From: Nitrospirota bacterium | GTDB taxonomy: Bacteria; Nitrospirota; Nitrospiria; 2-01-FULL-66-17 | Direction of reading: 5' to 3' | Assembly (NCBI GenBank): GCA_049325335.1 | Contig: JBMOMC010000007.1 | Location: 64,001 to 128,000, forward strand | DNA: 64,000 nucleotides | Shown: positions 43,417 through 63,329 of the stretch, one piece after another | Layout: every line of letters starts with the position of its first letter | Position numbering within the stretch: position 1 is the stretch's first letter | The notes under the pieces: model-generated | What the model was told of the DNA's origin: nothing | Databases searched by the model: none | The model's input: only the letters and a program-made list of their open reading frames with translations | Position numbers and translations under genes: made by a program

Positions 43417-43417
43417 G

Positions 43418-46400: not shown

Positions 46401-46456
46401 ACCCAGACCGCAACCATAGGGGCGCACAGCCGTGCGCCCCTACCCCTGATGACCAT
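43418..46456 (-). CDS. Secreted multi-TPR protein with C-terminal outer-membrane beta-barrel (Slam/BcsC-like architecture)
   Basis: Signal peptide (PAWS/Q), about 700 aa of TPRs, then SYDSNL and alternating Ser/Thr-hydrophobic strands ending SLSVSKTF. Confidence 0.75.
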   Translation of the reverse strand: MVIRGRGARLCAPMVAVWVILAGVPVPAWSQLGTAQEAVQEGMTLLQQGLTPEAIDRLRAAVDAFPDDPTAWLALGRAYEAGRRAVDAIPAYRRVIDLAPDSDSARRAASRLDQLGPDAETYRAAERAFLAGARALSAGETAAAEAELLSVIERVPKHLQTLLLLGNLAERAGREEDAEARWRTAVGVEPSFFPAQVNLGRLLERTERHGDAVAAYRAAAQTRADHPDVRFAERRLSQLGATPEQAVEVRAWMRAAEEAIRSGRVDEAQRLFERVVSVVPTQAPANLALGLIVAKRGRTVEAMGMLKRGLEGDPDFYPAWFLLAEIEAGQGLFDEAIQHYQRVVELRGPVREGVEARRRLPALEEAREKVYTLKSGLAVEARRSFSEGAEAFQRLDYEAAYRGFTRAAALDEGNPYYAFNRGLAAFNLGNTVVAARAFERVLEVLPTYGLAHFWLGVLFQNSAEQARDARSLPEAQAEYRAAVGRFDLAITNGEGAWFLEEAYKRRADAVDYLGRFEEGQGWLTVGGVLGAQGRFVDALNAFMASSQRFPYDYQPYLNVGAILTDFQEYGRAQEALERAAAVNPQSAKPSLQLGFLFEQQKRWEEALAAYRKAAELAPNTPLPYASIGTVLVHLERFDDALAAFERNVELANGTSTPIVHWNLAFYYGEQRRMALSLRHYRKVRELLANRTEKEAVDLRRSAEDAIATLEQRLRPYRLTLRATPWSYDSNLASSETDPISEVSSSVGGTMTYTLINEEQVRLRSGLTLSESSSLVYQQGASVSMALSTSGEYILSPIMEVGGSLGWSYGHGSDGPASLGQSLGASWTRRGQLPSSLTIGLSYNTSIGLGASTARNASTGYSLSLSQSLGASGSVGGSFSGSTNDANRADQVSQSKGLAVSFSRQLWAGMGLSLTYSLGFTDYVNPTRRSTVRGDTTIETLVFLQSVSKSYGVDLSYTFRSDLVISFGAHLTQNDSSFSLNRTEDIDELRNNLAQATGPYRKYTSSLSVSKTF

Positions 46457-46644: not shown

Positions 46645-46672
46645 TGTACTGCGTACTACACCTACCGGGTGC

Positions 46673-48631: not shown

Positions 48632-48802
48632 CGTCTGTACCTTTCCTGATTGAGCCTCTTCCCCCCATGGGAAGAGGTTATACCTAAGTTGCTTCCGCAT
48701 GTCTCATCACCCCCTTTCCTGCGATAGAGTCGCGGGGCTCACGCCCCGGTTGAAGCCATGGTTGAGAACAACACGTTCAACGGTTCAGTTGATCCGTTGG
48801 TA

Positions 48803-49546
48803 TCAACACTGATGCGCCGGACCGATCAGGGTCAGGCCATCCGGACGGCCGTCATTGTTGGCGTCGGTGAGATCGCCGTTAAACGTAAACGTCCCTCCGC
48901 ACGTGGACAAGACCCCGTCTTCCCGCAACGACTGGGTGTAACTACCTTGACTCGCGATCGGGTTACCGTCCGCGTCCGTCAGCGACCGTACGCTGAAACT
49001 CATATCGAACACCTGTCCCTTCTCCGCCACATTCTGCGAAAATTTATATTCGATTTGTGTGCACCGAGTGGTGGGGGCCGACGGCCCCACCGCGGCGCAC
49101 GCGCTGGTTTCCGTGCTGAGACGAGACAGCAACCCGCTGTCCATGGTCTGGAAGGCGCCCGCTAATTCATTGACCCGACTCGTGGTCAGCGGCGAGCAGG
49201 ACGTAATGGAAAACGGCGGCTCGGTCGCGCCGCCGCGGTCGCAGTTTTGGATCACATCCACGCTGCTGCTGCCCTGGGGCACCCCACACCCGAATTGGCT
49301 GCTCGCACACGCGCCCAAGGCACTGGGGGCGAAGGGATTGGACGTGTCCGGGAACGGATCAGACGGCCCAGTGATCGCAGTCGGATCAAAGCCGCGAAGT
49401 TGGGCCATATTCGCATTGGCGACGTTGCTCAGATTCAAGGTGAAGGCATTTTGACCGAACGCCGTCGAGTTCCACCCCGAGATGAGGCTCCCGATCACCA
49501 CCAATCCTCCGATGACAGCACGGCGGTATCCCGACCACCTCCGCAC
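48803..49546 (-). CDS. Secreted Cys-rich protein of unknown function (start uncertain)
   Basis: Signal-like VRRWSGYRRAVIGGLVVIGSLISGWNSTAFG/Q, eight Cys including the last residue, and a DANNDGRPDG Ca-binding-like motif. The 5' extension in the ORF track is AT-rich promoter DNA. Confidence 0.65.
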   Translation of the reverse strand: MRRWSGYRRAVIGGLVVIGSLISGWNSTAFGQNAFTLNLSNVANANMAQLRGFDPTAITGPSDPFPDTSNPFAPSALGACASSQFGCGVPQGSSSVDVIQNCDRGGATEPPFSITSCSPLTTSRVNELAGAFQTMDSGLLSRLSTETSACAAVGPSAPTTRCTQIEYKFSQNVAEKGQVFDMSFSVRSLTDADGNPIASQGSYTQSLREDGVLSTCGGTFTFNGDLTDANNDGRPDGLTLIGPAHQC

Positions 49547-49561
49547 CGGCGGATATCCTAA

Positions 49562-49577
49562 TGCAACGTATAGGCCA
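49562..49577 (-). promoter_or_regulatory. Putative sigma54 (-24/-12) promoter
   Basis: Minus strand TGGCCT-ATACG-TTGCA with exact GG-N10-GC spacing, at the end of an AT-rich stretch upstream of the two secreted genes. Confidence 0.6.
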
Positions 49578-49749
49578 CCGGCAAGCAACAAATACGATTT
49601 CTTCAACCGCTCTGAAAAATCTATGAATTTCATGCTGTTCAGTTTGATCGGTGCTCTTGATGATGTCGAAGGCATCACTGAACTGGGCACAATGAGAAAA
49701 TGTTTTCCCTCTCGTCGCACTTTTTCCTGATCCGGTTCGCTTTGATGCG

Positions 49750-51081
49750 TCAGAAGTGAAAACTGAGCTCAAGGAGTCCCTCCCAGCCAGACAGTTCAAG
49801 CACCAGATTTGTTCGATCGCGGGCATCTTCTTGGATATCGCCGGTCGTGACGATTTCCGCGGACTCGACGGTCCGACCCTCTCGCGGCGGGAAAAATTGT
49901 TGCGGCAACGCGACGCCGGGGCGAATGGAGAGGGGTTCGGTCGGCGCTTGATTCGGAAACCCGCTCAGAAAATGTTTGGTCACCTTGAGTCGGCGAATCG
50001 TTCCCACGAGATAGTTGGCGCGGCCGCCGACCGAGAGCCATGAGGTGAGCGGGTAGTTTCCGCCGACCCCGAATCGCGCGGTGTATCCCCACCCGAACGA
50101 CTCATCCGAGCTGACCGACGCGAAGTTCAGCTCCGGATTGACCACGTTGACCAACGCGTCCATGGTCAACGTGGCCAAGGTCACGCCCACCAAACCCACG
50201 TTGGCATACACGCCGCGGCCCTGCGGTGTCCGGACCAGGTGATAGCGCCACTCCGCGAAGATCTGATCGAGCACCAGGTTGTAGCGGGCGGACCGCGGCA
50301 CCACGATCGAATCGACGTTGGAGCGCAAGAACAGGTTGATCCGGTCGCGGCCGAACGTCTCGGCACGCCAGCCGGACACGGACAACCCGAACGAGTGGGC
50401 GCCTCCGGCGTGATAGAACGCTTCCACCCCGTATAACAGGCCGCCGTTGAGGCCGTCGACCGCAATGTTGCGTTGTTCGAATCGAAACAGTTCATTGCGC
50501 GGCAACAAAAAATTGGGGTCTTGCAGCACGGTGAGGCGGGTGTCCCTGAGAATGCGATTCAACGTGCCCAGGCGCGGTCGGTAATACCCCGTGATCAAGG
50601 CGTACGACCAGGGGCTGGTGGGCGGCGTCACGGCCGGCCGGGCCGTGGACGGCGCGGGCGCCGGCGCGGCATCCTGAGCGGCGGGCTCGGCCCCGAGACC
50701 CGGAGCAGGAGCACCACCCGCTTCAGCGCCTGCCGGCGATCCCGTCTCCGACGGCGCGGCGACCAACGGCTCGTCCGGAATGGTCTCGGGCGGCGCGGGA
50801 ATGGGTTGGGCCGTCTCGACCGGCGGTGCGACCGACGTCGGGTCCGGTGGGGCGGTATCGGGAACCGCGTCGGGCGGGGGAGCCGACTCCGGCTCGCCGG
50901 AGGTCGGGAGGCCGGTGTCCGACGCCGGGGTCTGCTCGACGGAAGACTCGGTGTGCACCGGGTCCGCGGCACGCGGCGCGCTGTCTTGCGCCGCGGCGGT
51001 TCCCTGCCAAAGCAACGCGGCGAACACGACGGCCGCGAGCCGACGCCGCGCGCGAGCCGAGCGGTTCACGGCGCACACCAT
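49750..51081 (-). CDS. Outer-membrane beta-barrel protein with Pro/Ala-rich N-terminal linker
   Basis: Start trimmed to MVCAVN at 51081. Signal ...GTAAA/QD, about 120 aa of Pro-rich linker, amphipathic strands, and C-terminal LELSFHF. Confidence 0.7.
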   Translation of the reverse strand: MVCAVNRSARARRRLAAVVFAALLWQGTAAAQDSAPRAADPVHTESSVEQTPASDTGLPTSGEPESAPPPDAVPDTAPPDPTSVAPPVETAQPIPAPPETIPDEPLVAAPSETGSPAGAEAGGAPAPGLGAEPAAQDAAPAPAPSTARPAVTPPTSPWSYALITGYYRPRLGTLNRILRDTRLTVLQDPNFLLPRNELFRFEQRNIAVDGLNGGLLYGVEAFYHAGGAHSFGLSVSGWRAETFGRDRINLFLRSNVDSIVVPRSARYNLVLDQIFAEWRYHLVRTPQGRGVYANVGLVGVTLATLTMDALVNVVNPELNFASVSSDESFGWGYTARFGVGGNYPLTSWLSVGGRANYLVGTIRRLKVTKHFLSGFPNQAPTEPLSIRPGVALPQQFFPPREGRTVESAEIVTTGDIQEDARDRTNLVLELSGWEGLLELSFHF

Positions 51082-51098
51082 CCCGGCATGGGAGAGCG

Positions 51099-53597
51099 TC
51101 AGCTCCGGGCCGCGACCGGTTTGCCCACGCGCGCGCCCAGGATAAAGCTCGGCTGAAGCCCGGCGATCAGCAACGGCAGGATGATCAACGCGCCTAAGGC
51201 GCTGGTCGCCATGGCAATGGGCACCAGAATGCCTTCCATGTGCAGGTAATACCCGGAGAACGGCAGGGTGAGGTACCCCGCGGAGATCGCCACCGCCACG
51301 TAACAGATCGCCTTGCCCGAGGTCGTGATCGTCGCGCGCAACGCGGCGTCGAGCGCCAACGGAGACCGGCTGCTTCCCTCGATGATGTGATGGAACGTCG
51401 CCTGGCCCCCTGGTCGGCCTTGGTGCTCTTCGCGGAGCCGGAACAAAAAGTAAATGGCATAGTCCGCGCCCATGCCCACGGCCATGGCGGAAATGGCCGC
51501 GGTCCCGATTCCCAAGGTCACGCCCCCGAATCCCATGACCGCGAAGTTGACCACCACCGCCAAGCCCAATGGAATCAACACCAGGCACGCGCCCAGCAAC
51601 GAGCGCAGGACCACGGCCGACGCCACGAAAATGATCGCGCCGATCTGCACGATGTTTTCCAGCTTGCCGTCCACCATGGTCCGGTTGAGCGCCACCGTGA
51701 CCGGCGAGCTGCCGGCCACGCCCACCGTCACCCCCAGCCGCTCGAACGTCGCACGCTGCGCGTCCACCACGGCGATGAGTTGTTCGGCCAACGCGGTGGA
51801 GTCGGTTTTCAGAAAACTCCAGATCACGGCGCGGCGGTACCGATAGTCGATCAGCCGCGCGAAATCCGCGGGGTTCCCGGAGATCGAATACAGGAACAAA
51901 AAGTTAGACACCTCGCCGTCGTCAGCCGGAATGCGGTCGAATTCAGGCTGGTCCCCGTGAAACGTCCGATTCATTTTCCGGAGATAATCCACGAACGATT
52001 CGGTCTTGCCCACGCCGGGCACGGCCGCGATGCGCTGCTGCAGGTCCGCGACCGCCGCCACCACGTCGGCGCGTTTGAGCGCGTCTTGCTCCCGCCCTTC
52101 CACCATCACGTAAAACGTGGACGTGCCCCCGAAGTGCGTGTTGAGCGCGCGCTCGTCGATGCGCAAGCGGGTGGATTCGAAAAATTGGTTCTTCAGGCTG
52201 TTGTTGACCACCACCCGGGACGCGCCCACCGTGCTCACGGCCGCCACCACCGCCACGCCCAGCGCCACCCACGCGCGGCGGTTCCCGGTCACCACGTCCG
52301 CCAGCCGCGCCAACAGCCGGTCCAGCCCGTCGCGAACCGCGGCGGTGACGCTCGGCGGGCGCAACAACGACCGCAGCGCCGGAATGAACGTCAACTCCAA
52401 CACCAAGGCGCTCATGATCCCGAACGCGGTCAACAACCCGAACGCGCGAAAGGTCTTGAGGTGAAACGTGACCAGCGAGGCAAAACTGGCGGCCGCGACC
52501 AGGCCCGCGGTGATCATCACCGGCGCCATCTTGGCCGTGGCTTCGATCACGGCCTGCCGGTTGTCGCGGCCAGCCGCGAGTTCCTCGTAATACCGCTTGA
52601 GAATCTGGATGGCGTGGCCCGCGGCGATCGCCATGATCAAGATCGGGGTCATGGTGTTGAACGGGTCCATCGGAATCCGGAACGTGCCCATGAGCCCGAG
52701 CGCCCACACCACGGAAATGAGCGCCGTGGCCAAGGGCAGGGCCATGCCTTGCAGACTGCGGAAGGCCCAGTACAACACCCCCATCATGATCACCAGCGAA
52801 ATCGGGAACAGGTACACAATCCGCTTGGAATCGGCTTCCAAATACGAGAGCGCAATGGGCAACCCGCCAATGTGCACATCCACGTCGTTTCCGGCCGCGC
52901 GCGCAATCACGTCGTCCAACGCGCGCCGAATCTGCTCATCCCCCATCCGAAAGCCGAACGCGGTCTGGATCGCGCCGCGACTGCCGCCGAACCAGGATTC
53001 GCTGGCCCAATCATCCGAATTTTTGGGCCACTCCTGGGGCGTGCCGCTCGGTTGCGCCGGTTTGTCCTGCCAGGTGGGGACCCACTCGCGATAGTCGGTG
53101 ATGATCGCGGCGGCGCGTCCGTCTGCGGACACCAGGCCGTTCACGTACAGATCGTTCGACATCACGCGACGCCGGAACGCTTCCGCCTCCTCGGGCGTGG
53201 TCGGGACCTCGGGCATCAGGCGTTCGACCTTGATCGACTCGCCGTCCGCGGTCACGAACTTGACCTTACGATCCGTCAGGCTGACCACGTTTTCTTCTTT
53301 GATCCCGGGGATCTTTTTGACTTCGTCGGTGAGGGTTTTAAGCGTGGCCAAGTGTTGCGGCGTAAAGATGTCCCCGTGTTTGGGGACCACGCCCACAACC
53401 ACCACGCGACTGCCGCCGAAGACCTCTTCGATGACGTTATTGAGTTGGACGTACGGGTGTTGTTGGGGCAGGATGGTCTTGGGGTCGATGACCATCCGCA
53501 CCTTCGCCATTTGCACGGCAAACAGGACGGTCAACGCAGCCGTGGCGCACAACACCCACCACGGACGGCGGACGACGAATTCGATCGCTCGTCTCAT
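51099..53597 (-). CDS. MMPL/RND superfamily exporter
   Basis: Two repeats of TM, periplasmic domain and 5 TMs. IAAGHAIQILKRY and GMGADYAIYFLFRLREE motifs. Confidence 0.9.
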   Translation of the reverse strand: MRRAIEFVVRRPWWVLCATAALTVLFAVQMAKVRMVIDPKTILPQQHPYVQLNNVIEEVFGGSRVVVVGVVPKHGDIFTPQHLATLKTLTDEVKKIPGIKEENVVSLTDRKVKFVTADGESIKVERLMPEVPTTPEEAEAFRRRVMSNDLYVNGLVSADGRAAAIITDYREWVPTWQDKPAQPSGTPQEWPKNSDDWASESWFGGSRGAIQTAFGFRMGDEQIRRALDDVIARAAGNDVDVHIGGLPIALSYLEADSKRIVYLFPISLVIMMGVLYWAFRSLQGMALPLATALISVVWALGLMGTFRIPMDPFNTMTPILIMAIAAGHAIQILKRYYEELAAGRDNRQAVIEATAKMAPVMITAGLVAAASFASLVTFHLKTFRAFGLLTAFGIMSALVLELTFIPALRSLLRPPSVTAAVRDGLDRLLARLADVVTGNRRAWVALGVAVVAAVSTVGASRVVVNNSLKNQFFESTRLRIDERALNTHFGGTSTFYVMVEGREQDALKRADVVAAVADLQQRIAAVPGVGKTESFVDYLRKMNRTFHGDQPEFDRIPADDGEVSNFLFLYSISGNPADFARLIDYRYRRAVIWSFLKTDSTALAEQLIAVVDAQRATFERLGVTVGVAGSSPVTVALNRTMVDGKLENIVQIGAIIFVASAVVLRSLLGACLVLIPLGLAVVVNFAVMGFGGVTLGIGTAAISAMAVGMGADYAIYFLFRLREEHQGRPGGQATFHHIIEGSSRSPLALDAALRATITTSGKAICYVAVAISAGYLTLPFSGYYLHMEGILVPIAMATSALGALIILPLLIAGLQPSFILGARVGKPVAARS

Positions 53598-53691
53598 AGA
53601 TCCCTCCCACCAGACCGTGGAAGGTTCTCCAACATTCCCGGCAGGAGCCCGTTAGCCGTCACCACTCGGCTCCTGACCAGGGCATGAAACA

Positions 53692-53731
53692 GCCACCCCC
53701 GTCCCACGTGAGGGGCGGGGGTGGCGTTCGG
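53692..53731 (-). terminator. GC-rich hairpin between the LolA-like and MMPL genes (terminator or stabiliser)
   Basis: Minus strand GCCACCCCCGCCCC-TCACGT-GGGACGGGGGTGGC (stem 53692-53725) followed by only a short T-rich tail (TGTTTC). Confidence 0.4.
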
Positions 53732-53757
53732 CATGTGGCGCCGTGACGTGACCCAAT

Positions 53758-54564
53758 CTATCGTCGGGGGCCGCTCCGGACCGCGCGGTCGGTAAAATCG
53801 TCGTCGGTTAATCCCACGTTGTTCTTCAGGTCGCTGATCTCGAATAAGGTCTTGTGCTCGGTCTGCACGTTTTTGACCTCCGAGCGCTTCCAGGCCCACA
53901 CGTCGTTGGGACGCTGCCATTCGATCACCTGGGTCTTGAGCAGGTCTCCCTTGCGGTCATAGTAGTCGACCCGCACCGGGTTGAACGCCGTGGTCGGCAC
54001 CCAGGTGAGCTTCTTGCCGTACAGACTCTCCTTGTCCTTCGGCACGCTTTGCACCACGTAGCAATCACCCGGCGGCGCTCCGCACTGCTCCGCGCGCACC
54101 ACCGTGTGTTCATCCTCGGTAAGCTCCCGTTGTCCCAAATCCGCGAACGTGATGTCCGAGCCCATGAAGGCGTCATCCTGCTCGCGGGTGGTCATGCGGC
54201 GAATCTGTTTCAGGCTCGGCAGATACAACCGCAGATCATCGGGTTGTCCGGCTTTACTGTAGTCCCAGATCAAAAAGCCCACCCCGCGCTGATCCGGCGG
54301 AAACTCGGTGGCGAACAAGGTTTTGCTGTCGAACCCGTCTTTGCCCGCGTACGACTTCCAATACCGCTTGGTCACGATTTTCTGCTCGTCGCCCCGCTTG
54401 TCGATCTTGCGCAACGTGACCGTGGACACCTGATCGTTCGCCGTGTACAGCTCCCTGGTCTTTTTCATCACGTCGAACCCGGACAACTCGGCCGCCCCCG
54501 CGCCCGAAATCCCAGCGGCCGCGAGCATGCCGCCGACCGCCGCCCCGATCAAGAATCGCCGCAT
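53758..54564 (-). CDS. Outer-membrane lipoprotein-sorting (LolA-like/DUF1329-related) protein
   Basis: Signal peptide, RGVGFLIWDY, LYLPSLKQIRR, AFMGSDITFADL and YYDRKGDLLK motifs. Start trimmed to ATG 54564. Confidence 0.85.
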   Translation of the reverse strand: MRRFLIGAAVGGMLAAAGISGAGAAELSGFDVMKKTRELYTANDQVSTVTLRKIDKRGDEQKIVTKRYWKSYAGKDGFDSKTLFATEFPPDQRGVGFLIWDYSKAGQPDDLRLYLPSLKQIRRMTTREQDDAFMGSDITFADLGQRELTEDEHTVVRAEQCGAPPGDCYVVQSVPKDKESLYGKKLTWVPTTAFNPVRVDYYDRKGDLLKTQVIEWQRPNDVWAWKRSEVKNVQTEHKTLFEISDLKNNVGLTDDDFTDRAVRSGPRR

Positions 54565-54584
54565 CGCCGTTCTCCTCCCCACGC

Positions 54585-55652
54585 TCACAACGGTTTGAGC
54601 CCGGTGAGCACCGTAAAGGGACTCACGGCCGGCATCGGAACCCGCTTGATCTTGGTGAACCCGGACGCGGCCAGCCACTCCCCGACTTCCCGCGACGAGT
54701 GGGCCGCTCCGCCCGGCGTGTGGAGCAACTGATTGACCCCGATCATCGCGGAGAGCACAGGCCCGGATTTCTCGTCGTTGAGCATTTGATCCTGCACGAT
54801 CACAAGGCCTCCGGGCGTGAGCGCCTGATAGGCCTTACGGAAAATCTCTTGGATCACGGCGGGGGATTCCTGGTTGAGCATCGAGGAGAGCAGGGCCACG
54901 TCGTACCCCTGCCCGAAGGCGTCGCTCAAATAGTCCGCGGGTTTGGTTTCGACCCGGCCAGTCATCTGGTAACTCGCGACAATTTCGCGCGTGACGGCCA
55001 AGGTCTGCGGGCGATCGAGCACGGTCGCCGACAAGCCCTTATTGGCCTTGCAAAACATGATGGGAAACGTCCCGGGTCCGCCCGCGATGTCCACCAGGTG
55101 CGACCGGCCTTTGAGGGAGATCTTCTTCGCCAGCAGTTGCGCCTGCGCCACGCCGCGGTAGTGCATCCCATAAATGTAGGTGCGGGTCGCCTCCTCCCCT
55201 TGATCGTGCGGCTTCTGCACCGGCGGTTTCCCGGTCATCACCGCGTCGATCAACTTGCCCCACGTGGGGTACCAGTCCTCGAACATCGAGACGATTCCGC
55301 CCTGATACCGCGGGCTGGTCTTGACCAAGAAGGTATTGGCCAGCGGACTATTGCGGTACCGGTCGTGGGCGCGCTCCAATAATCCGAGCGACGTGGCGGC
55401 GATCAGCACGATCTCCAGGCCGCGCGGGTCCGCGCCGATCTCGCGCGCGAGTTCCTCGGCGGACATACTCTTGCCGGCCAGACGATTGAACACATCCAGC
55501 CGATTCGCGACGTGCAGCACTTTGGAGTGCCAGTACGCGGAACTGATCCGCGCAACCGTCATGGGGTCAAGCGTTTTCGCGGTGGGACGCTTGCGCGCCG
55601 CGCGCCGCCCTGCCGATTTACCGTGTGTCGCTTTCGCCGTCACTTTCGCCAT
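54585..55652 (-). CDS. SAM-dependent O-methyltransferase (Methyltransf_2 plus dimerisation domain, BchU/CrtF-like)
   Basis: Winged-helix dimerisation N-terminus (SAEELAREIG...YRNSPLA), LVDIAGGPG and ALTPGG motifs. GAGGAGG RBS. Confidence 0.9.
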   Translation of the reverse strand: MAKVTAKATHGKSAGRRAARKRPTAKTLDPMTVARISSAYWHSKVLHVANRLDVFNRLAGKSMSAEELAREIGADPRGLEIVLIAATSLGLLERAHDRYRNSPLANTFLVKTSPRYQGGIVSMFEDWYPTWGKLIDAVMTGKPPVQKPHDQGEEATRTYIYGMHYRGVAQAQLLAKKISLKGRSHLVDIAGGPGTFPIMFCKANKGLSATVLDRPQTLAVTREIVASYQMTGRVETKPADYLSDAFGQGYDVALLSSMLNQESPAVIQEIFRKAYQALTPGGLVIVQDQMLNDEKSGPVLSAMIGVNQLLHTPGGAAHSSREVGEWLAASGFTKIKRVPMPAVSPFTVLTGLKPL

Positions 55653-55784
55653 CGTGCCTCCTCAACAGCGGGTCATGTGTACGCCGTTACTTCCCGTGAA
55701 CGCCTCATCGCGCGCGGACCATCGCGATACCGGCGCACAGTATACTCGAAATCAACGACTTCCTCACCAGCGGCGTTCCGATCG

Positions 55785-57170
55785 TTAGAACATCAGATCA
55801 AGCGCCGCGGTAAACCGGTTGTCGATCTGGTCGTTGCCGTCAAAACTGGTGGCCTCCGTCTTGGAATGACTGTACTCGCCGTGCAGGATCAGCGCGACAC
55901 GGTTTGTCTCCATCCAGTCATAACGCACCGCCCAGGTGACGCCATCGAGGTCGCCCGTGTGCGAGTCGGTGGTTGCGTCGCCCTGGTCTAAGTTCCGGAT
56001 GATATCGTAGCGGAGGGCCCACAGCAGCGACCAGTCGGCCAAGAGGTCGTATTGGAGTTCGAGAAATCCGCCCCAAAACGACGCGTCCTGAGGATCGCTG
56101 CCCCCGAATAATCCGGCGCTGTCTCTGCCGTACGCCACGAGCGTGAACAGGCGAAGCGGCGCGGACCGAATGTCGCCGTCAACCCCGATCCGATAGAATG
56201 GATGATTGGATTGCCCGGTCCCGGGAATGGGCTCAGCGGTCGGCGTAAACTGCGCATTCGCGGAAGCCGTCCCCCAGTACAGAAACCCGCCGGCATGACT
56301 CCGCTCAACCGGTTGGTACACTCGCAGGTAATAATCGAGCGCCTTGTTGCTGTCGGCGCGGCCGTTCGTCCCGTTGATCAGCGCCAACGAATAGGCGAGG
56401 CCCCCCGGCGCCCGGCCCGAGACTTCCGCCCCACGCTGCGCGCGGCTCCAATCCAACGTGGTCTCGGGATCGTCGGCCGCCGCGCTGCCGGTCGGGAAAT
56501 AACCATAGATGGGAATGGCGACCTGCCGCCCGGAGACCGACGCGGTGGAGAGCGAATGCCGTCGATACTGCGACATGGGCACATCGAGTTCAAACGCCCC
56601 GAACTTCATGTTGATCTTTAACGATGAGCCGATCGCGATGTCGTTCACCCTGACCCATGCGGAGTCCAATTCACCGGCCTGTCCCTCAGCCGTCCACAGA
56701 TCCGCGTTCGACACCTCCGGCCGATACCTGACAAAAAAGTTCGTGTTCCGAGCCAACGGACCTCCCAACAACACCTCCAGGCGCTCGGTTCCAAAGGTTC
56801 TGGTTTGAACCTTGGCGTCACCAAGATCCGTATCCTGGTTGTCGCGGGAGCGGTAGCTGTACCCGAAAATCGTCCGAGCGCTGAGCGGCCAATCGGCGCG
56901 GTCAACGCCCGCCGGCGGATCCGTCGCACCCGGTTCCGGCGTCGGCTCCGTCCCGGGTTGCGTAGGCCCGACCAGGCGATGGCCGTTGACCCGGAATGCT
57001 TCGCCCGCGTCATTGAGCGCCGGAGGAATCGTGTGGCAGTGCCGACAGGGTACGTTAAGTGTTCTCGTGAAGGCGGGAATCGCTCCGGCTTCGGACCGCC
57101 ACCCGTCGGCCAACACGCCCACGATCACCACGCCTAGGAACCACGTCCACCCGCTGCGTCGCACCGCCAT
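55785..57170 (-). CDS. Cyc2-like monoheme cytochrome c-porin fusion
   Basis: Signal peptide, then AIPAFTRTLNVPCRHCHTIPPALNDAGEAFRVNGH, which matches the Cyc2 N-terminal pattern AxPxFAR...CxxCH...PxL. Porin-like body ending ALDLMF. Confidence 0.8.
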   Translation of the reverse strand: MAVRRSGWTWFLGVVIVGVLADGWRSEAGAIPAFTRTLNVPCRHCHTIPPALNDAGEAFRVNGHRLVGPTQPGTEPTPEPGATDPPAGVDRADWPLSARTIFGYSYRSRDNQDTDLGDAKVQTRTFGTERLEVLLGGPLARNTNFFVRYRPEVSNADLWTAEGQAGELDSAWVRVNDIAIGSSLKINMKFGAFELDVPMSQYRRHSLSTASVSGRQVAIPIYGYFPTGSAAADDPETTLDWSRAQRGAEVSGRAPGGLAYSLALINGTNGRADSNKALDYYLRVYQPVERSHAGGFLYWGTASANAQFTPTAEPIPGTGQSNHPFYRIGVDGDIRSAPLRLFTLVAYGRDSAGLFGGSDPQDASFWGGFLELQYDLLADWSLLWALRYDIIRNLDQGDATTDSHTGDLDGVTWAVRYDWMETNRVALILHGEYSHSKTEATSFDGNDQIDNRFTAALDLMF

Positions 57171-57226
57171 ACCGATTCTGCCTCCCTGCCCCGTCACCGA
57201 ACGAATCCGTGCCCTGTTGGTCGCGC

Positions 57227-57255
57227 GGAGGGGCGTTCACGGTGAACGCCCCTCC
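57227..57255. repeat. Perfect 14-bp inverted repeat (intergenic hairpin)
   Basis: GGAGGGGCGTTCAC-G-GTGAACGCCCCTCC between the ferritin-like and Cyc2-like genes, with no T-tail. Confidence 0.8.
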
Positions 57256-57295
57256 GAACATTCCGACGACCGCGCGTCAAGCCGCGACGCATCAG

Positions 57296-57637
57296 TCAGT
57301 GATGGTGCGCGTGATCCGAGTCGTGCGCGTGGTCCCCTTCGTGGCCATGATCCTCGTCGTGCCCGTGTCCGGCCGCAGCCTTCTGCCCGGCGTCCAGCTT
57401 GCCGATAAACTCCATCAGCGTGGCGACCGCGTGTTTGTGTTCGTCGCGGATGTGGCCCAATACGTGGACCACGTCATCGACACCAGGAAAGTCCTCACTC
57501 GCGATGACAGGGATTTGCCCGTCATACTTATTGATCATCTTTAACTCTTCGATGAGGTCGTCCCGCAGGTCGGCGACCGCTTTGTCCACGTCGCTGCGAA
57601 CGCCGTGGGCGTGACCATTACTGTGTGTGTTGCACAT
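57296..57637 (-). CDS. Small ferritin-like (EncFtn-type two-helix) protein with His-rich termini
   Basis: LIEELKMINKY...HIRDEHKHAVATLMEFI core and C-tail GHGHDEDHGHEGDHAHDSDHAHHH. GAGGAGG RBS. Confidence 0.7.
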   Translation of the reverse strand: MCNTHSNGHAHGVRSDVDKAVADLRDDLIEELKMINKYDGQIPVIASEDFPGVDDVVHVLGHIRDEHKHAVATLMEFIGKLDAGQKAAAGHGHDEDHGHEGDHAHDSDHAHHH

Positions 57638-57679
57638 CCGACACCTCCTCGTGAGAAGAAATCCGCGGGTACGCCCGCG

Positions 57680-58390
57680 CTACGTGGGTTGAACGCCCAT
57701 CCAGACCACATTCGGCCAGCCAGTGGTGTAATCCACCCGGGTCATACTCCCGGGCTCGATCACCATGCGCTTCCCGTGTTCCAACGCACAGCCCAAGGCC
57801 GCGCACAACGCGGCGCGAATCGTGCCGACATGGGTCACGGCCACGACAATCCCGCCGGGATGCCGGGCGATGAGGTCCGCCACCGCGGCCTCGACTTTCT
57901 GACCGAATTCCTCCAACGACTCGCCGCCCTTGGGCGTAAACCCCAACGGGTCGGCTTTCCACGCCATCCAGCCGTCGGGGTCCTCGCGCCTGACCTCGTC
58001 AACCAATCGCCCGTTCCACCGGCCCATGCTGCGTTCCAGCAACTCGGGCCATGCCGTCCCCTGAAGCCCCAACACGCACTCGATCGATGCCGCGGTCTGA
58101 CGCGTGCGCAACGTTGGGCTGACATACAGCCCCGCGACCGGCAGCCCTTGTCGCTCGAACCAGCGCCCCAGGGCTTGCGCGTGACCCGCCCCCTGCGTGT
58201 TGAGCGTGGGGCCTTCGCCGTCTTCATAAAACCGATCCGGATGATAATCCGTGGCACCGTGCCGACACAAGATCAGCGTGCCGAGGAGCGATTTACGGCC
58301 CCGCATCGTGGCCTGTTCGTGATCCGCCTTGTCCAACGGTTGACCGATCATGGAATCCGGACGCAGGGTGGTTGACCAGACCGGCGCCAT
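57680..58390 (-). CDS. Histidine phosphatase family protein (CobC/GpmB-like)
   Basis: LCRHGAT, SPTLRTRQTA, LERSMGRWNG, GGESL and VTHVG motifs. Confidence 0.9.
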   Translation of the reverse strand: MAPVWSTTLRPDSMIGQPLDKADHEQATMRGRKSLLGTLILCRHGATDYHPDRFYEDGEGPTLNTQGAGHAQALGRWFERQGLPVAGLYVSPTLRTRQTAASIECVLGLQGTAWPELLERSMGRWNGRLVDEVRREDPDGWMAWKADPLGFTPKGGESLEEFGQKVEAAVADLIARHPGGIVVAVTHVGTIRAALCAALGCALEHGKRMVIEPGSMTRVDYTTGWPNVVWMGVQPT

Positions 58391-58391
58391 C

Positions 58392-59162
58392 TCAGGCCCG
58401 TTCCCGCATGAACATCCACATGGACCAGGCCACGGACAGCGCGCAGAACACGGTCACCACGCCCACCGCCAACCCGAAATCCGCGTCCCACCGTTGCCCG
58501 GCCAACAACGTCCGCGTGGCCTCAACGCTGTAGTGTACCGGGTTGACCGACGCAATCGCGGCGATCCAGCCCGGCATGAACACTTTGGGGATAAACGCCG
58601 ACGTAAAGAACATCAAGGGCAACGTCATCATATTCCCCGCCACCACCAAGGGTTCCTCGCGGCGAAGTTTCAGCGCGATGCCGTTGGACAGGCTGGAAAA
58701 CCCGATGCCCATGCCGAACACCGTGACGAACAACAATACCAATCCGGACGCGCCGACGTGAATCTTCGCGCCAAGCAGCGCGGCCACCGCCAGCACGATG
58801 GTGACCTGCAACACCACCAACACCCCGTTGTGCAGCACGCGGCTCAACACGATCGCGGGCCGGTTGACCGCGGTGACCATCATCTTCTCGATCGTGCCGT
58901 ACGTGATCTCCCGCAACAGGTTGACGCCAGCCCACGAGGAGCCGAACAGCACGGTCATCACCACGATGCCGGGAGCCAAAAAATCCAAGTAACTGTCCGA
59001 GGGGAACCCAGCCATCCGCGCAAAGTGCGCGAACAACTGACCGAAGATCACCAGCCAGATCAGCGGCTGGACCAAGCCGAACACGGTCCACATCGGCATA
59101 CGGAACGTGATGCGGGAGTATTTCACGAACAGATGCCAGGTATCAGCGAGGGCCGCGCTCAT
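58392..59162 (-). CDS. ABC-2 type exporter permease (DrrB-like)
   Basis: LVQPLIWLVIFG, YLDFLAPGI and MPGWIAAIASVNPVHYSVEA motifs. Start trimmed to ATG 59162. Confidence 0.9.
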   Translation of the reverse strand: MSAALADTWHLFVKYSRITFRMPMWTVFGLVQPLIWLVIFGQLFAHFARMAGFPSDSYLDFLAPGIVVMTVLFGSSWAGVNLLREITYGTIEKMMVTAVNRPAIVLSRVLHNGVLVVLQVTIVLAVAALLGAKIHVGASGLVLLFVTVFGMGIGFSSLSNGIALKLRREEPLVVAGNMMTLPLMFFTSAFIPKVFMPGWIAAIASVNPVHYSVEATRTLLAGQRWDADFGLAVGVVTVFCALSVAWSMWMFMRERA

Positions 59163-59167
59163 CGCAC

Positions 59168-60424
59168 TTACCGTCCTTTGTCCTTGTCCCAGGTTTGTTG
59201 CGGCCACGACCCGGAGCCGGAGTCCTGTCCGTGCCCGGCGCCGTTCCAGTTTCCCGGCCCGCCGTCGCCCGATTCGCCCGACCACTGTTTCCACGCCGGC
59301 GAGCCGGACCCGTTGGTCTCGGTGGTCTCAGGCGCCGCAGCGGGTTTCTCCGTCCGCGCGGCGGCCGATCCCTTGTCCTCGGCAGACGACTCCGCCCACT
59401 GCTTATTGCCCCAGGAGCCGCCCCCCCCTTTTTGCCACTTGGTCCACCACGCCTCCCCGCCGGACGACCCGGTATCGGCTGAAAATGCTTTTCCGGTATG
59501 CTTTAGGAAGACGTCGTCCAGGCTGGGCCGCGACAAGGTAATCGACCGAATGCCCGCGCGCGCGGCATCCAGCGCGGGCAACAGCTTGGGCAACGCTTCG
59601 CGGCCCTCCTTGACGACCACGTGCAGACTGTCGCCCTCGGCCACGATGTCTTTGACCAACGGATGGCTCTTAAGAACCTGCCACACTGACGGCCCCGGCG
59701 CGCCGTTGTCGAACGTCAAGCGGATGGCGTCCCCGCCGACCCCGTCCTTGAGCGCTTCGGGCGTCCCCACCACTTTGACTCCGCCTTGGTCCACGATCGC
59801 CACCCGGTGGGCCAGCTTATCGGCTTCTTCCAGGTAGTGCGTGGTCAGGAAAATCGTCATGCCGTCGGACGCGTTGAGCCGTCGAATATAGTCCCACAAT
59901 GCGTGGCGGGACTGCAGGTCGAGTCCCAACGTCGGTTCATCAAGGAACAACACCCGCGGCCGGTGCAGCAACGCGGTGGCGATGTCCAACTTGCGTTTCA
60001 TGCCGCCGGAGTACGACGAGACCACCTGGTCGGCGACGGACTCGATGTCGAACAGGGCCAACAACTCGTTGGTTCGTTCCGCGATGATGCGGGCCTCTAG
60101 ATGGTAAAGCCGGCCCTGCAACACCAAGTTCTCTCGACCGGTCAGGAAATAGTCCACTCCGGCTTCTTGCGCCACGTACCCGATCACGCGACGGACCGCC
60201 GCGGGCTCACGAACCACGTCGAACCCAGCCACCGACGCGGCGCCGCTCGACGGTCGACTCAGCGTGGTCAGAATCTTGATCGTGGACGTTTTCCCGGCGC
60301 CGTTGGGCCCCAGAAACCCGAGGATCTCGCCTTCGGACACGGACAGGTCCATGGCGGACAACGCGGTTCGTCCGCCATAATACACTTTGGACAAGCGTTC
60401 GGCGTGAATGATGGGAGAGGACAT
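59168..60424 (-). CDS. ABC exporter ATP-binding subunit (DrrA-like) with Trp/Gly-rich C-terminal extension
   Basis: GPNGAGKT, YSGGMKRKL, LFLDEPT, TTHYLEEAD and PSLDDVFLKHTG motifs, then a low-complexity tail of about 100 aa. Confidence 0.92.
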   Translation of the reverse strand: MSSPIIHAERLSKVYYGGRTALSAMDLSVSEGEILGFLGPNGAGKTSTIKILTTLSRPSSGAASVAGFDVVREPAAVRRVIGYVAQEAGVDYFLTGRENLVLQGRLYHLEARIIAERTNELLALFDIESVADQVVSSYSGGMKRKLDIATALLHRPRVLFLDEPTLGLDLQSRHALWDYIRRLNASDGMTIFLTTHYLEEADKLAHRVAIVDQGGVKVVGTPEALKDGVGGDAIRLTFDNGAPGPSVWQVLKSHPLVKDIVAEGDSLHVVVKEGREALPKLLPALDAARAGIRSITLSRPSLDDVFLKHTGKAFSADTGSSGGEAWWTKWQKGGGGSWGNKQWAESSAEDKGSAAARTEKPAAAPETTETNGSGSPAWKQWSGESGDGGPGNWNGAGHGQDSGSGSWPQQTWDKDKGR

Positions 60425-60427
60425 GCG

Positions 60428-60955
60428 TTACCGCGCCGCGTGCGCGCGCTCACCACGCGACGGCGCGATGAACGTGCCCGACTTTCCTCCCGTCTTCTTC
60501 AACAAGCCGACGTCTCCAAACGTCATGCCTTTGTCGATGGCCTTACACATGTCATAGATCGTCAGCAGCGAAATCGACACCGCCGTGAGCGCCTCCATTT
60601 CCACGCCCGTTTGCCCATGCACTTTGACGGTCGCGGTGACCGTGATGGCGCACTGGCCGTCGGCATTGGGAGCCTGATGTTCGGTGAACGCAATATCCAC
60701 GCCGGTCAGCAACAACGGGTGGCACATGGGAATCACGTCCGACGTGCGCTTCGCCCCCATAATCCCGGCCACTTGCGCCACGGCGAGCACATCGCCCTTT
60801 TTGATCTGGCCCGCGCGGATGCGTTCGAACGTGGCGGGTAACATGTACACCGTGCCTTCGGCGATCGCGGTCCGGTCGGTCTCGGACTTCTCGCTCACGT
60901 CAACCATGCGGGCGCGCCCCTCGGCGTTAAAATGCGTCAGATCGTTTTCGGCCAT
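60428..60955 (-). CDS. moaC: Cyclic pyranopterin monophosphate synthase MoaC
   Basis: [44 protein letters not shown] and KTGGKSG motifs. Confidence 0.97.
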
Positions 60956-61389
60956 GTCAGCTCCTTACGTCGATAATGAAGGTCGCCTGGACGCCGTGCG
61001 ACTCGATCAACAAACCGGCACAGCGCACTTTAGTTTTGCAAAATCTACACCTCTGAGTTCGCAGGACCACGTGTACCCGGCATGTGGCTCGGCGATGACT
61101 ATTCCCATGCTTGACTTTGAGACCAAAATCCGGAATAAATCCGTCCCGTAGTGGTTTAAGTGCTATACCGACGACACGAATTATTTATTCAGTAATGTTT
61201 CATGAAATAGCTCGTGGGTTATAACAGTCCATCCTTCAGCAGTCAATGCGTTCGCGTCGCCAACACCGTGACGCGTGAAGGGAAAAGCAGGGAAGACTTT
61301 TTCCCCTTTTTCTTGATTGAAGAAATTTCTTGGACGTGTACGTTGTTTTAACTCTTGGATTCAGAAGCGTTTCCTTTAATGCACGTAAA

Positions 61390-61405
61390 TGGCACTGTAC
61401 TTGCT
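61390..61405 (+). promoter_or_regulatory. Sigma54 (-24/-12) promoter for moaD-moaE-moaA
   Basis: TGGCAC-TGTAC-TTGCT is a perfect consensus, about 30 nt upstream of moaD. Confidence 0.8.
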
Positions 61406-61436
61406 TAAACTCTAAGAGCTTGAAAGAGAGGATCGA

Positions 61437-61694
61437 GTGGTCACCGTGAGATTCTTTGCTGTGCTGAAAAAACTCGTTGGACGAGAGATGATGCATGTGG
61501 ATGTCGGCTCCGGACAAATGACGCTAAAAGACTTACTTGATCGACTGGATAAAGACATCCCGTCATTCCGGACAACGCTCCGAGAAGGCCGAACCCTGAT
61601 CGCCGTGAACCAAGAAACCGCGCAAGAGGACACGCTCATTTCAGACGGCGATGAAGTCGCGTTTCTCCCACCGTTTGCCGGTGGACAACTCTAA
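61437..61694 (+). CDS. moaD: Molybdopterin synthase sulfur carrier subunit
   Basis: VRFFA, IAVNQE and DGDEVAFLPPFAGG motifs, with a QL extension. Confidence 0.92.
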   Translation: MVTVRFFAVLKKLVGREMMHVDVGSGQMTLKDLLDRLDKDIPSFRTTLREGRTLIAVNQETAQEDTLISDGDEVAFLPPFAGGQL

Positions 61695-61705
61695 CCCGAG
61701 GCGAG

Positions 61706-62164
61706 GTGACGCTGATGATGCCGCAGGAAACCGGGTCGACGCTGGAATGGATCAGGATTCAAGAGGAAGACTTCTCGGTTGAAGAAGAAACCAACCGCAT
61801 TAAAGAACGTTCAAAGCGCATCGGCGGCATCGTCACCTTTCTGGGAACCGCGCGCGACTTTTCCAAAGGCCGAGACATTAACCGCATCGACTTTGAATAC
61901 TACCCTGGCATGGCGGAAAAACGCTTAAACGAAATCCGCGAACGCGCATTGCAGGATTACGACATCATTGAAGTCAGCATCATCCATCGGGTTGGCCGCA
62001 TCGAGACCGGCGAAAACATCGTGTTGATCCTGGTCGGAGCCGAACACCGTAAAGACGCCTTTCGCGCGTGCGAGTGGTGCATCGACGAATTAAAGCGCAT
62101 CACGCCGATCTGGAAACGCGAGGAAACCACGCAGGGCGAAGTGTGGGTGGTTGAACATCCGTAA
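61706..62164 (+). CDS. moaE: Molybdopterin synthase catalytic subunit
   Basis: GGIVTFLGTAR, EYYPGMAEK, HRVG, AEHRKDAF and IDELKRITPIWKRE motifs. Confidence 0.95.
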   Translation: MTLMMPQETGSTLEWIRIQEEDFSVEEETNRIKERSKRIGGIVTFLGTARDFSKGRDINRIDFEYYPGMAEKRLNEIRERALQDYDIIEVSIIHRVGRIETGENIVLILVGAEHRKDAFRACEWCIDELKRITPIWKREETTQGEVWVVEHP

Positions 62165-62264
62165 TAGGGCAATGAGTGACTCACGACGGCTCGTCTCTGG
62201 ACGAGTAAGGTAGATTGACCCCCGGGCCTCACGGCTCCGGGCGGTCCCAAGCGAGGGGGAGAAC

Positions 62265-63308
62265 ATGATCGAAAAGGCGGTCGCGCAATCACAGGTCGTG
62301 GGGTCTGAACAGGAGTTCGCCATCCTGAAGGACAACTTCAACCGCAAGATCAGTTATATGCGGATTTCCATCACAGACCGGTGCAACCTTCGCTGCACCT
62401 ATTGCATGCCGGCCTGGGGGTTCGAATGGATGGATCGAAACAGCCTGCTCACCTACGATGAAATTCATCGGTTGGTCGGCGTGGCGGCCAAACGCGGCTT
62501 GTACAAGGTCAGGGTCACCGGCGGTGAACCGCTGGTACGCGACGGCGTGGTGGACTTCGTGGCGGGCCTCAAGGCCATCAACGGTATCCGTGAAATTGCG
62601 TTGACCACCAACGCGGTGCTGCTCAAGAAATACGCGCAAGGCCTGAAAAACGCGGGGCTCGACCGAGTCAACATCAGCCTCGACTCCCTCGATCCCAAGA
62701 AGTTCGAAGAGATCACGCGCGGCCACGTGTTCTGGAAGGTGTGGGAAGGCATCGAAGAGGCCGAACGCGTGGGACTCAACCCCCTCAAGATCAACATCGT
62801 GCTCCAGAACGGCGTGAACGATATGGAAGCCGTCGACTTCGCCAAGATGACCATCGATAAGCCGTACGAGATTCGCTTCATCGAATACATGCCGGTCAAC
62901 GACTACGAAGACTGGAAGAGCAAATACATCCCGGTCGCCGACATCAAAAACCGAATTGCCAGCGAACTCGGCGAGCTGATTCCGGTTCAAGAGTCCGAAT
63001 CCGATGGCCCGTCCAAGAACTTCCGCTTAGAGGGCGCCAAGGGAGTGGTGGGATTCATCACCGCCATCAGCGACAACCATTTCTGCGAGAAGTGCAACCG
63101 AGTCCGCTTAACCGCGGATGGCAAGATCCGGCCGTGCCTGTTCTCGGCTATTGAGGTGGACTTCTTGGATGCGTTGCGGAACAGTTGCAGCGACGAAGAC
63201 ATCGACATGCTGTACGACCAGGTGTTGGGAATCAAACCGCAGGCTCACGACCTGGATAAATTTTCTGAAGAAAAGATGCTCAAGGCTATGGTGAATATCG
63301 GCGGGTAA
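62265..63308 (+). CDS. moaA: GTP 3',8-cyclase
   Basis: RISITDRCNLRCTYCMP, TGGEP, RFIEYMP, FCEKCNRVRLTADGKIRPCL and C-terminal IGG. Confidence 0.97.
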   Translation: MIEKAVAQSQVVGSEQEFAILKDNFNRKISYMRISITDRCNLRCTYCMPAWGFEWMDRNSLLTYDEIHRLVGVAAKRGLYKVRVTGGEPLVRDGVVDFVAGLKAINGIREIALTTNAVLLKKYAQGLKNAGLDRVNISLDSLDPKKFEEITRGHVFWKVWEGIEEAERVGLNPLKINIVLQNGVNDMEAVDFAKMTIDKPYEIRFIEYMPVNDYEDWKSKYIPVADIKNRIASELGELIPVQESESDGPSKNFRLEGAKGVVGFITAISDNHFCEKCNRVRLTADGKIRPCLFSAIEVDFLDALRNSCSDEDIDMLYDQVLGIKPQAHDLDKFSEEKMLKAMVNIGG

Positions 63309-63329
63309 CCGTCTCACTCTCCTCCCCCC

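Follow-up and report, generated by a model that had tools for sequence, protein, structure and literature searches.

A conserved moaC-headed operon of Nitrospirota and a possible route to an exported molybdopterin derivative

Why should genes for the synthesis of molybdopterin (MPT) lie in one run with an exporter, a phosphatase, a methyltransferase and an outer-membrane barrel? The question is raised by a 64,000-nucleotide stretch of the genome of a Nitrospirota bacterium (the window; G000:C7:64001-128000, where G000 is the window's genome; other genomes are labelled G, families f, with f1 the window's own, and loci L). Molybdopterin is familiar as the ligand in molybdenum (Mo) and tungsten (W) cofactors; animals also turn it into a waste product. 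A first-pass annotation of the window had suggested that here it is dephosphorylated, methylated or loaded with another metal, and exported. We find that the run headed by moaC is conserved across families and is accompanied elsewhere in the genome by a second, shortened MoeA, and we consider the chances about evenly balanced that a side branch of the MPT pathway makes a dephosphorylated, methylated and perhaps metal-bound pterin and exports it. The observations behind this proposal are gene identities, a single moa set, synteny, co-occurrence and residue changes. The conserved linkage and the co-tracking MoeA lend the earlier suggestion partial support, but there is no dedicated moa set, and the argument from genes missing from the window does not stand.

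Conservation of the moaC-headed operon

Genes were named by Pfam and NCBIfam profile searches over the annotated part of the window (37.6-64 kb). The minus-strand run begins with moaC (cyclic pyranopterin monophosphate synthase, 60428..60955, over the TIGR00581 cut-off) and continues downward with a DrrA-like ATP-binding cassette (ABC) ATPase whose C-terminal tail is rich in Trp, acidic and of low complexity (59168..60424, over the TIGR01188 cut-off), a DrrB-like ABC-2 permease (58392..59162, PF01061), a CobC/PspA-like histidine phosphatase (57680..58306, PF00300, His_Phos_1), a small ferritin-like (EncB-like) His-rich protein (57296..57637; NF058679 at E 1.7e-9, under the cut-off), a Cyc2-like porin with CxxCH at residue 42 (55785..57170), a class-II dimerising S-adenosylmethionine (SAM) methyltransferase (54585..55652, PF00891/PF08100, Methyltransf_2), a LolA-like periplasmic carrier (53758..54564, PF17131), an MMPL/RND permease with a Trp-rich insert (51099..53597, PF03176) and a small single-copy outer-membrane beta-barrel, OmpW/CarO-like by its fold model and without a Pfam family (49750..51081). 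The intergenic gaps from moaC downward are 3, 5, 1, 42, 98, 132, 20, 160 and 20 nucleotides, the gap of 1 being counted to the longest phosphatase open reading frame, where homologues place the probable start at 58306. On the plus strand lie moaD (sulfur carrier, 61437..61694, PF02597), moaE (molybdopterin synthase large subunit, 61706..62164, PF02391) and moaA (GTP 3',8-cyclase, 62265..63308, over the TIGR02666 cut-off), each the sole copy in the genome. The profile searches thus confirm all four moa genes of the first-pass annotation, the tight packing of moaC with the ABC exporter and the phosphatase, and the continuation of the run to the barrel. The arrangement is far beyond chance.

The methyltransferase clade is found in 39 of the 121 genomes of the class, at an identity of at least 49%, the next matches having 30-37%. 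moaC lies on the same strand and no more than 7 kb away in 33 of these 39 carriers; the other six genomes are broken up into 150-600 contigs, and in them the genes are on separate contigs or no moaC turned up. Wherever a carrier locus is long enough to tell, moaC is the first or near-first gene of the block, which is present in many deep-branching Nitrospirota and is spread over ten families and three Nitrospirota classes. A scan of 185,579 species genomes with two strict motifs gave 43 loci, or 42 after one archaeal partial match was dropped; it missed the gammaproteobacterial branch described below, and many of its loci are truncated. Their titles name 41 Nitrospirota taxa, among them Candidatus (Ca.) Manganitrophaceae, and one 'uncultured bacterium'. 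The LolA-like gene is present in 39 of the 42, the phosphatase in 37, the permease in 35, the ABC ATPase in 33 (one of them an unrelated ABC protein), moaC in 32, the MMPL gene in 25, moaE in 18, the barrel and the His-rich protein in 17 each, a DUF1302 gene in 12, moaA in 10, moaD in 7 and the porin in 4.

The moa genes are interleaved with the block in several orders. The arrangement in f22 and f26 is moaC-ABC-moaDE fusion-(secreted protein)-FmdE-phosphatase-His-rich-methyltransferase-LolA-DUF1302-MMPL-barrel, with moaA before moaC in f26 and after the barrel in one f22 locus; moaA also follows the barrel in f12 and in part of f7 and f6, and is divergent, together with moaDE, in f1 and f8. 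It takes four positions overall, and the upstream neighbours differ family by family. A MoaD-MoaE fusion of about 228 residues sits between permease and phosphatase in f4, f9, f22 and f26, FmdE is inside the operon in f9, f22 and f26, and an Oxidored_molyb-domain gene lies between phosphatase and methyltransferase in G009. A minimal form without the ABC pair occurs in G055, G061 and G087 and reads moaC-phosphatase-methyltransferase-LolA-MMPL-barrel-moaA in the first two. Non-carrier loci that were opened (two in f3, two in f15 and one in f5) have a plain moaC-moaE(-moaA). When 41 genomes are placed in a tree by 21 ribosomal proteins (FastTree, with low deep support and no clade test), the carriers f26 and f22 fall outside the class and the non-carriers form three to four nested groups; the tree implies three to four separate losses. 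The linkage of the moa genes to the block is old and selected, which answers in the affirmative the earlier question whether the synteny is kept in relatives. FmdE itself proved uninformative as a genome-wide marker: it is present in five of five carriers, yet outside f26 it is unlinked and of another motif type.

Some details of individual loci may be recorded here. Minimal-operon genomes carry a sulfite-oxidase-family (MsrP-like) gene divergent from moaC (L051:2996-4018 in G061, and L052). The moaA of G071, a single-contig genome, is split over two frames (L041:6359-7355), possibly through an assembly error. After moaA in f7 and f12 there are 3-6 tandem copies of Cys-rich paralogues with likely signal peptides (L040:13818-18967, L041, L051:12133-15473, L061), a family with 80 representatives in the 50% library; one was modelled as a five-strand beta-meander with no clear fold match, and the proteins may be subunits of an oligomeric barrel or a fibre.

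moaA, moaC, moaD and moaE each occur once in the 99%-complete genome G000 (tblastn), and nearly all carriers have one moaC and one moaA; the second, housekeeping moa set that the first-pass annotation had asked about is not there, and a dedicated set for a special product is rejected on the same counts. Outside the window G000 encodes a canonical full-length MoeA (C44), a MogA/MoaB-like gene (C1:373k), a ModA-like binding protein (C1:125k, by Pfam only), one NasA-like enzyme and four sulfite-oxidase-family genes, its other two PF00384 matches being NuoG-like. It had been noted that mogA, moaB, moeA, modABC and molybdoenzymes are absent from the window; none of mogA, moeA, modABC or a molybdoenzyme was met among the genes annotated at 37.6-64 kb (mobA was not searched for), but this carries no weight as an argument, since such genes are present elsewhere in the genome. 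Because moaACDE are sole copies and the genes for the Mo cofactor (Moco) and Mo enzymes lie elsewhere, the moa genes of the window are housekeeping genes and absences from the window are uninformative. Carriers lacking canonical MoeA or Mo enzymes, which would have been decisive, were not seen: MoeA_N is present in 94 of 94 near-complete genomes, and PF00384 and PF00174 were found in five and three of the five carriers tested, a PF00384 count that includes NuoG and is unsorted outside G000. The single-copy MoaA and MoaC (NCBIfam) and MoaD and MoaE (Pfam) score above their cut-offs, and with the canonical MoeA and Mo enzymes the genome resembles any other with ordinary Moco biosynthesis (moaACDE, mogA, moeA); what sets it apart is that its moa genes share their locus with those for a phosphatase, a methyltransferase and a transport chain of the envelope, and that a second MoeA, without domain IV, accompanies them. 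As for the pair of findings that the first-pass annotation had set against its own idea, these are indeed the sole moa genes, whereas an exporter linkage that is not conserved is contradicted by the ten families.

A short MoeA paralogue and gammaproteobacterial relatives

A search for the MoeA_N family identified a MoeA paralogue without domain IV outside the window, on the minus strand at G000:C6:162836-163861 (L123:2837-3862). Carriers have such a second MoeA of about 335 residues, and f2, f3, f5, f10, f11, f13, f15 and f16 have at most one MoeA; the short form was confirmed by sequence in 27 genomes. When presence is scored as two matches, or one weak match, 35 of the 121 genomes have both the short MoeA and the methyltransferase and 74 have neither, with the methyltransferase alone in 4 and the short MoeA alone in 8, six of them f17. 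Across the phylum, 26 of 401 genomes have both, 371 have neither and 4, all 70-78% complete, are discordant, a count from which 38 weaker matches with open frames of 416-511 residues were left out as full-length MoeA. Since the short MoeA co-tracks the block, it is an independent pointer to pterin chemistry.

The paralogue consists of domains I-III only, with no MoeA_C domain in Pfam and 20-41 residues past a GHPP motif. In the 120 homologues of the Nitrospirota type, Ser303 of Escherichia coli MoeA is replaced by Glu in all, Asn300 by His in 107, and Asp59 by Glu and Lys279 by Arg in 119 each, while Thr, the core Glu and the Lys297-equivalent are kept in all 120 and Lys282 is retained; the gammaproteobacterial type has Arg in place of the Lys297-equivalent in 114 of 119. 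Domains I-III and the acidic/Thr core are shared with the MoeA/gephyrin-E family (archaeal MoeA1 and MoeA2, the W-specific MoeA1 of Methylorubrum, actinobacterial Glp); in contrast to that family, the short paralogue is without domain IV and has GHPPE for GNPVS along with the changes at Asp59 and Lys279. The Ser that is described as orienting molybdate (Ser303/Ser328; PMC13197769) is thus missing together with domain IV, and the acidic/Thr core and the Lys297-equivalent remain in the Nitrospirota-type set. We infer from these residues that the short MoeA would still bind a pterin but would not be a molybdate insertase, and that its His/Glu pocket would suit a cation.

In G014 the short MoeA gene stands 47 nucleotides before moaC, in a divergent copy without the Glu. 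This in-operon position is known from one genome, because none of 105 candidate stretches was confirmed when the G014 protein was the query in a metagenome scan. In the f7 and f12 loci examined the short MoeA often adjoins a MogA/MoaB-type gene or a rhodanese. A predicted complex of the short MoeA dimer with the phosphatase scored 0.00, which is neither support nor counter-evidence. As to other neighbours, in f1 the gene follows a flavin-dependent (FAD) oxidoreductase and a Reg_prop-like propeller gene, and like propellers follow the methyltransferase in L231, L240 and L290; tldD-pmbA adjoins it in f6 and f26 (L137, L138, L143, L146, L167, L171, L175), with a HAD-like gene in between in f26.

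Orthologues of the methyltransferase and the short MoeA are also present in a second phylum. Relatives of the G014 methyltransferase have 55-65% identity; the few that carry a name belong to the Gammaproteobacteria, and a fragment from one such cluster bears the name Ca. Tenderia electrophaga, which is described as an electroautotroph (PMC5371394). These gammaproteobacterial-type methyltransferases nest inside the block clade. The corresponding short MoeA proteins, including Tel_03255 of Ca. Tenderia electrophaga, have the Glu in 118 of 119 and both His and Glu in 117 of 119. Among 80 metagenome loci, 36 of them at least 10 kb long, an orthologous phosphatase-X-LolA-methyltransferase order is present in four closely similar loci, LolA adjoins the methyltransferase in two further ones, and the short MoeA lies within 6 kb of the methyltransferase in one. 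The phosphatase orthologues score 235-243 bits, versus 138 for the paralogue in G000 itself. This context favours a module common to both phyla, yet it speaks against the linkage being strict.

Phosphatase, methyltransferase, transport proteins and surroundings

The phosphatase has the histidine phosphatase branch 1 signature (RHG, a second Arg, a Glu and a second His), with R15, H16, G17, R67, E91 and H159 invariant and the clade residues R25 and Y27 also present in 15 of 15 sequences. It stays below the NCBIfam cut-offs for CobC (100 versus 162.9 bits) and PspA (76.7 versus 350). We propose that it may remove the terminal phosphate of MPT.

The nearest solved relative of the methyltransferase is the S-methyltransferase DsyB (7wdq, E 1e-46), followed by the N- and C-methyltransferases RedM and SibL. 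An LSSMxNQE motif is present in 16 of 16 and in 120 of 120 clade members, and the paralogue in G000 has LHH at this place. The catalytic His that class-II O-methyltransferases have after strand 4 is absent from the clade. Fold and SAM motif are shared with DsyB, RedM and SibL, and the lack of the catalytic His with DsyB; the block enzymes nevertheless form a clade of their own. The residues of DsyB that bind 4-methylthio-2-hydroxybutyrate are given as Tyr97, Gln101, Tyr129, Tyr142, Gln146 and His291 (PMC10989797), and only Tyr142 is matched in a hidden Markov model alignment. Identity with DsyB is rejected, as five of these six residues differ. A quinone methyltransferase is rejected as well, on the description of the mpq enzymes as UbiE/PlqQ-like (PMC11874023), a distinction by description and not by sequence. 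Because the O-methyltransferase His is missing and five of the six DsyB residues differ, our best guess is methylation of S or N on a substrate other than that of DsyB, and we propose that this may be an S or N of a pterin. In L031 (8551-8952), L032 and L033, which belong to the genus of the window, an extra gene for an Ig-like protein of about 133 residues stands between porin and methyltransferase; it is not found in the window.

The two transporters share an unusual feature. The tail of the ABC ATPase has 6-13.5% Trp versus 0.3-1.3% in the core in 14 of 14 aligned copies, and the MMPL insert, of 34-186 residues with 3-11 Trp, is present in 13 of 14 block copies and absent from the two paralogues on C45. 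Since repeats of the same kind occur in both and are absent from the paralogues of the genome, we conclude that the ABC and MMPL transporters evolved as a unit. The acidic repeats lie at 59168-59500 (ATPase tail) and about 52950-53085 (MMPL insert) of the window and vary in length from 34 to 219 residues; the two proteins probably face different compartments. MMPL/RND, LolA-like and DUF1302 modules (HpnN- and BstA-type) comprise the same transporter families, although the HpnN and BstA matches are weak and far under cut-off; the block differs from them in that its Trp-rich repeat insert recurs in the ABC ATPase, that it has an OmpW-like barrel of its own and that its link to moaC is fixed. The AlphaFold2 model of the barrel has a predicted local distance difference test (pLDDT) score of 74.5 and a predicted template modelling (pTM) score of 0.73, and its best Foldseek matches are CarO and OmpW at E 3e-4 to 1e-3.

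The first-pass annotation had counted the His-rich protein and the Cyc2-like porin among the members of the block; both are present in the window but neither is core across families. The His-rich protein has an N-terminal Cys/His motif and a His-rich tail, its ferroxidase-type Glu/His are not kept in f22, and none of the loci examined in f7 and f12 has the gene; it is likely to be an accessory, a chaperone for divalent metal rather than a ferroxidase. The porin has the N-terminal single CxxCH on a porin-sized protein that is expected of Cyc2, the wider signature having been judged by eye. It lies inside the block only in f1, and its homologues do not track the block (none of 15 in f7 and none of 9 in f12, versus 4 of 8 in f2 and 12 of 35 in f3); with 4 of 42 loci it is rejected as a core gene or marker and is a local passenger. 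Non-carriers of f2 have a Cyc2-like CxxCH porin gene right after moaA (G043:C96:1993-5006, G007:C62:8-3028), and a paralogue of the window's porin lies near the ModA-like gene (G000:C1:122726-126336), so some CxxCH porins may serve molybdate uptake and not electron transfer. Multiheme cytochromes with 24, 14 and 11 CxxCH are encoded at G000:C43:87047-92946 and C1:236388-246983, and the organism may carry out extracellular electron transfer.

Neither a Moco riboswitch nor any other Rfam match was found at E up to 1 in window positions 46000-64000. The promoter scan gave 1 site versus 3.8 expected, which is below chance; a -35/-10-like site seen by eye at 61246-61219 fails the rule of the scan. 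In G091 the block is covered by RNA contigs from four runs, all of the same study, and two of these runs have single contigs that reach from moaC as far as the LolA-like gene; such contigs can show neither transcripts nor levels, and DNA may be present. All four runs break upstream of moaC.

Beyond the barrel, on the same strand, lie peripheral genes: a Cys-rich protein of no known family that is likely to have a signal peptide (48803..49720), found after the barrel or moaA in f1, f4, f6 and f22; a Cys/His-rich protein of 675 residues, likewise with a likely signal peptide and no known family (46673..48700; f1 and f4); and a TPR protein with a DUF1302 barrel gene (41941..46456), a pair that also follows the block in f4 and f6. 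On the other side, moaD, moaE, moaA and a sigma-54 activator (61437-64000) have a GC fraction of 0.52-0.56 versus 0.60-0.67 in the block; f1, f6 and f8 all keep the activator next to the moa genes, of which it may be a regulator. Positions 1-37600, judged from the starts of open reading frames, hold a long run of glycosylation and membrane genes on the strand of the block, with nucleoside diphosphate (NDP)-sugar enzymes, glycosyltransferases and several paralogous membrane proteins, which may modify surface proteins.

What the operon may make

In the scheme that we propose, ordinary Moco would still be made via the canonical MoeA. The short MoeA would capture MPT, or its adenylated form MPT-AMP, and free it without Mo or with a divalent metal, which the His-rich and FmdE-like proteins would supply. 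Once the phosphatase had cut the terminal phosphate off the pterin, the methyltransferase would methylate a dithiolene sulfur or a ring nitrogen, and the less polar product would exit by way of ABC and MMPL transporters, LolA-like carrier and barrel; at the surface of the cell it would serve as a ligand for metal or as a redox cofactor. We favour such a pterin side branch because of the moaC synteny, the interleaved moa genes, the co-tracking short MoeA and the pterin genes that enter the operon, and because the pocket of the short MoeA is changed, orthologues of the methyltransferase and the short MoeA occur in a second phylum and the methyltransferase lacks the O-methyltransferase His. Pyocyanin offers a parallel in logic only: there the class-II methyltransferase PhzM methylates a redox-active heterocycle, which an RND system exports. 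The block has no phenazine genes, and its scaffold genes are those of the pterin-dithiolene pathway.

A number of observations weigh on the other side. There is no dedicated moa set, the moa genes being housekeeping and single-copy in nearly all genomes, and carriers keep canonical MoeA and Mo enzymes. Of the 39 carriers, 18 have moaA linked to the block, 13 have it unlinked or on a different contig and 8 yielded no moaA, and moaE is distant from the block in both single-contig f12 genomes tested. The short MoeA is unlinked in all Nitrospirota genomes examined but G014, whose copy lacks the Glu. In f17, where no block turned up, a short MoeA on long branches is retained; these copies nest within f7, and their long branches would, as expected, fit decay after loss of the block. 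None of the 80 gammaproteobacterial-type loci has moaA, C, D or E, the MMPL gene or the barrel, and the methyltransferase mostly stands alone in them. MMPL-LolA-DUF1302 modules are generic, with paralogues on C45, and indicate neither substrate nor direction. The co-occurrence counts include kin and are not independent, and co-loss is weak evidence because several block-less lineages have small genomes (f10, f11, f13, f16, f17).

One alternative is a shared operon with separate chemistry, in which housekeeping moa genes would be co-regulated with, or would once have been interrupted by, a system for dephosphorylating, methylating and exporting an unrelated lipid or small molecule; the short MoeA would then have only the lifestyle of the carriers in common. 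The single moa set fits such an origin, as do the Nitrospira-type genomes that keep moaC-moaE-moaA without the block, the methyltransferase orthologue that is alone in most of the 80 metagenome loci, the unlinked moaA and moaE in part of f7 and f12, and the established fact that MMPL-LolA modules usually carry lipids. We nevertheless regard it as rather unlikely, for moaC stays at the head of the block through family- and class-level divergence and rearrangement, moaD-E, FmdE, the Oxidored_molyb gene and the short MoeA each lie within the operon of one lineage or another, both the methyltransferase and the short MoeA were shared with Gammaproteobacteria, and no lipid-synthesis gene is among the constant members.

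A route of disposal, in which surplus or damaged MPT or Moco is dephosphorylated, S-methylated so that the metal-binding dithiolene is quenched, and excreted, fits the gene content equally well. Urothione, the end product of human Moco, is described as needing a thiol methyltransferase (PMC9607355), and bis-thiomethylation as quenching the dithiols gliotoxin and holomycin (PMC10500201). The proposed dephosphorylation, S-methylation and excretion of a pterin are common to the urothione pathway and the operon; in the operon, however, the methyltransferase is of the class-II dimerising kind and not like the TPMT of animal Moco catabolism, synthesis genes are co-located and export crosses a bacterial envelope. 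Co-transcribing synthesis with destruction would be wasteful, an outfit of two transporters, a carrier, one or two barrels and metal chaperones is more elaborate than waste would call for, and the block is absent from most Moco-making Nitrospirota, so that disposal seems quite improbable to us. The weakest alternative, which we hold to be about as improbable, is that the block imports a metal complex or pterin, methylation frees the metal, and the short MoeA handles W or some other metal in the service of an ordinary cofactor: PRK14498 and archaeal MoeA structures are the best-scoring matches of the short MoeA, that lineage has been proposed to handle tungsten (PMC11733289), the Arg of the gammaproteobacterial type falls at the site of Arg291 in the W-specific MoeA1 (PMC13197769) and FmdE genes are described as mostly adjoining metal transporters (PMC2954224), but domain IV, the home of the Arg353 contact (PMC13197769), is absent, the invariant Glu of the pocket should repel an oxyanion, DrrAB-type ABC systems are established as exporters, and the block has neither a substrate-binding protein nor a TonB receptor.

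In the literature searched, outside which most subscription journals fall, we found no paper on this operon. Supplements aside, the main text of PMC9040806 has no mention of 'molybd', 'moa' or 'MMPL', that of PMC10203281 none of 'moa', 'MMPL' or 'pterin', and that of PMC5371394 none of 'molybd', 'methyltransferase' or 'pterin'; 'nitrosp' and 'truncat' are absent from the text of the MoeA paper PMC11733289. The operon itself is real and ancient and seems not to have been described, and several separate genomic features point to molybdopterin chemistry. Even without the link to pterins, a conserved operon, Trp-rich repeats shared by two transporters and a remodelled MoeA, none of which we found described in that literature, would be of interest, and the minimal operon of G055 and G061 and the new MoeA subfamily are concrete candidates for expression.

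The carriers include chemolithoautotrophic manganese (Mn) oxidisers, whose electron-uptake chemistry is unsettled, and probably also a cathode electroautotroph. This leads us to a bolder version of the pterin side branch, which we put forward as an unlikely but specific possibility: the product might be an as yet unknown pterin-dithiolene, dephosphorylated, methylated and maybe loaded with a divalent metal in the His/Glu pocket, that the cell exports so that it can take up electrons from metals or minerals, with the compound serving as a cofactor at the surface or as an electron shuttle. If true, such a compound would connect the Mn(II)-oxidising Ca. Manganitrophaceae to Ca. Tenderia electrophaga, the electroautotroph, and would give the molybdopterin scaffold its first extracellular use with neither Mo nor W. 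If bacteria do divert molybdopterin into a compound for export, that compound would define a new class of natural products or cofactors.

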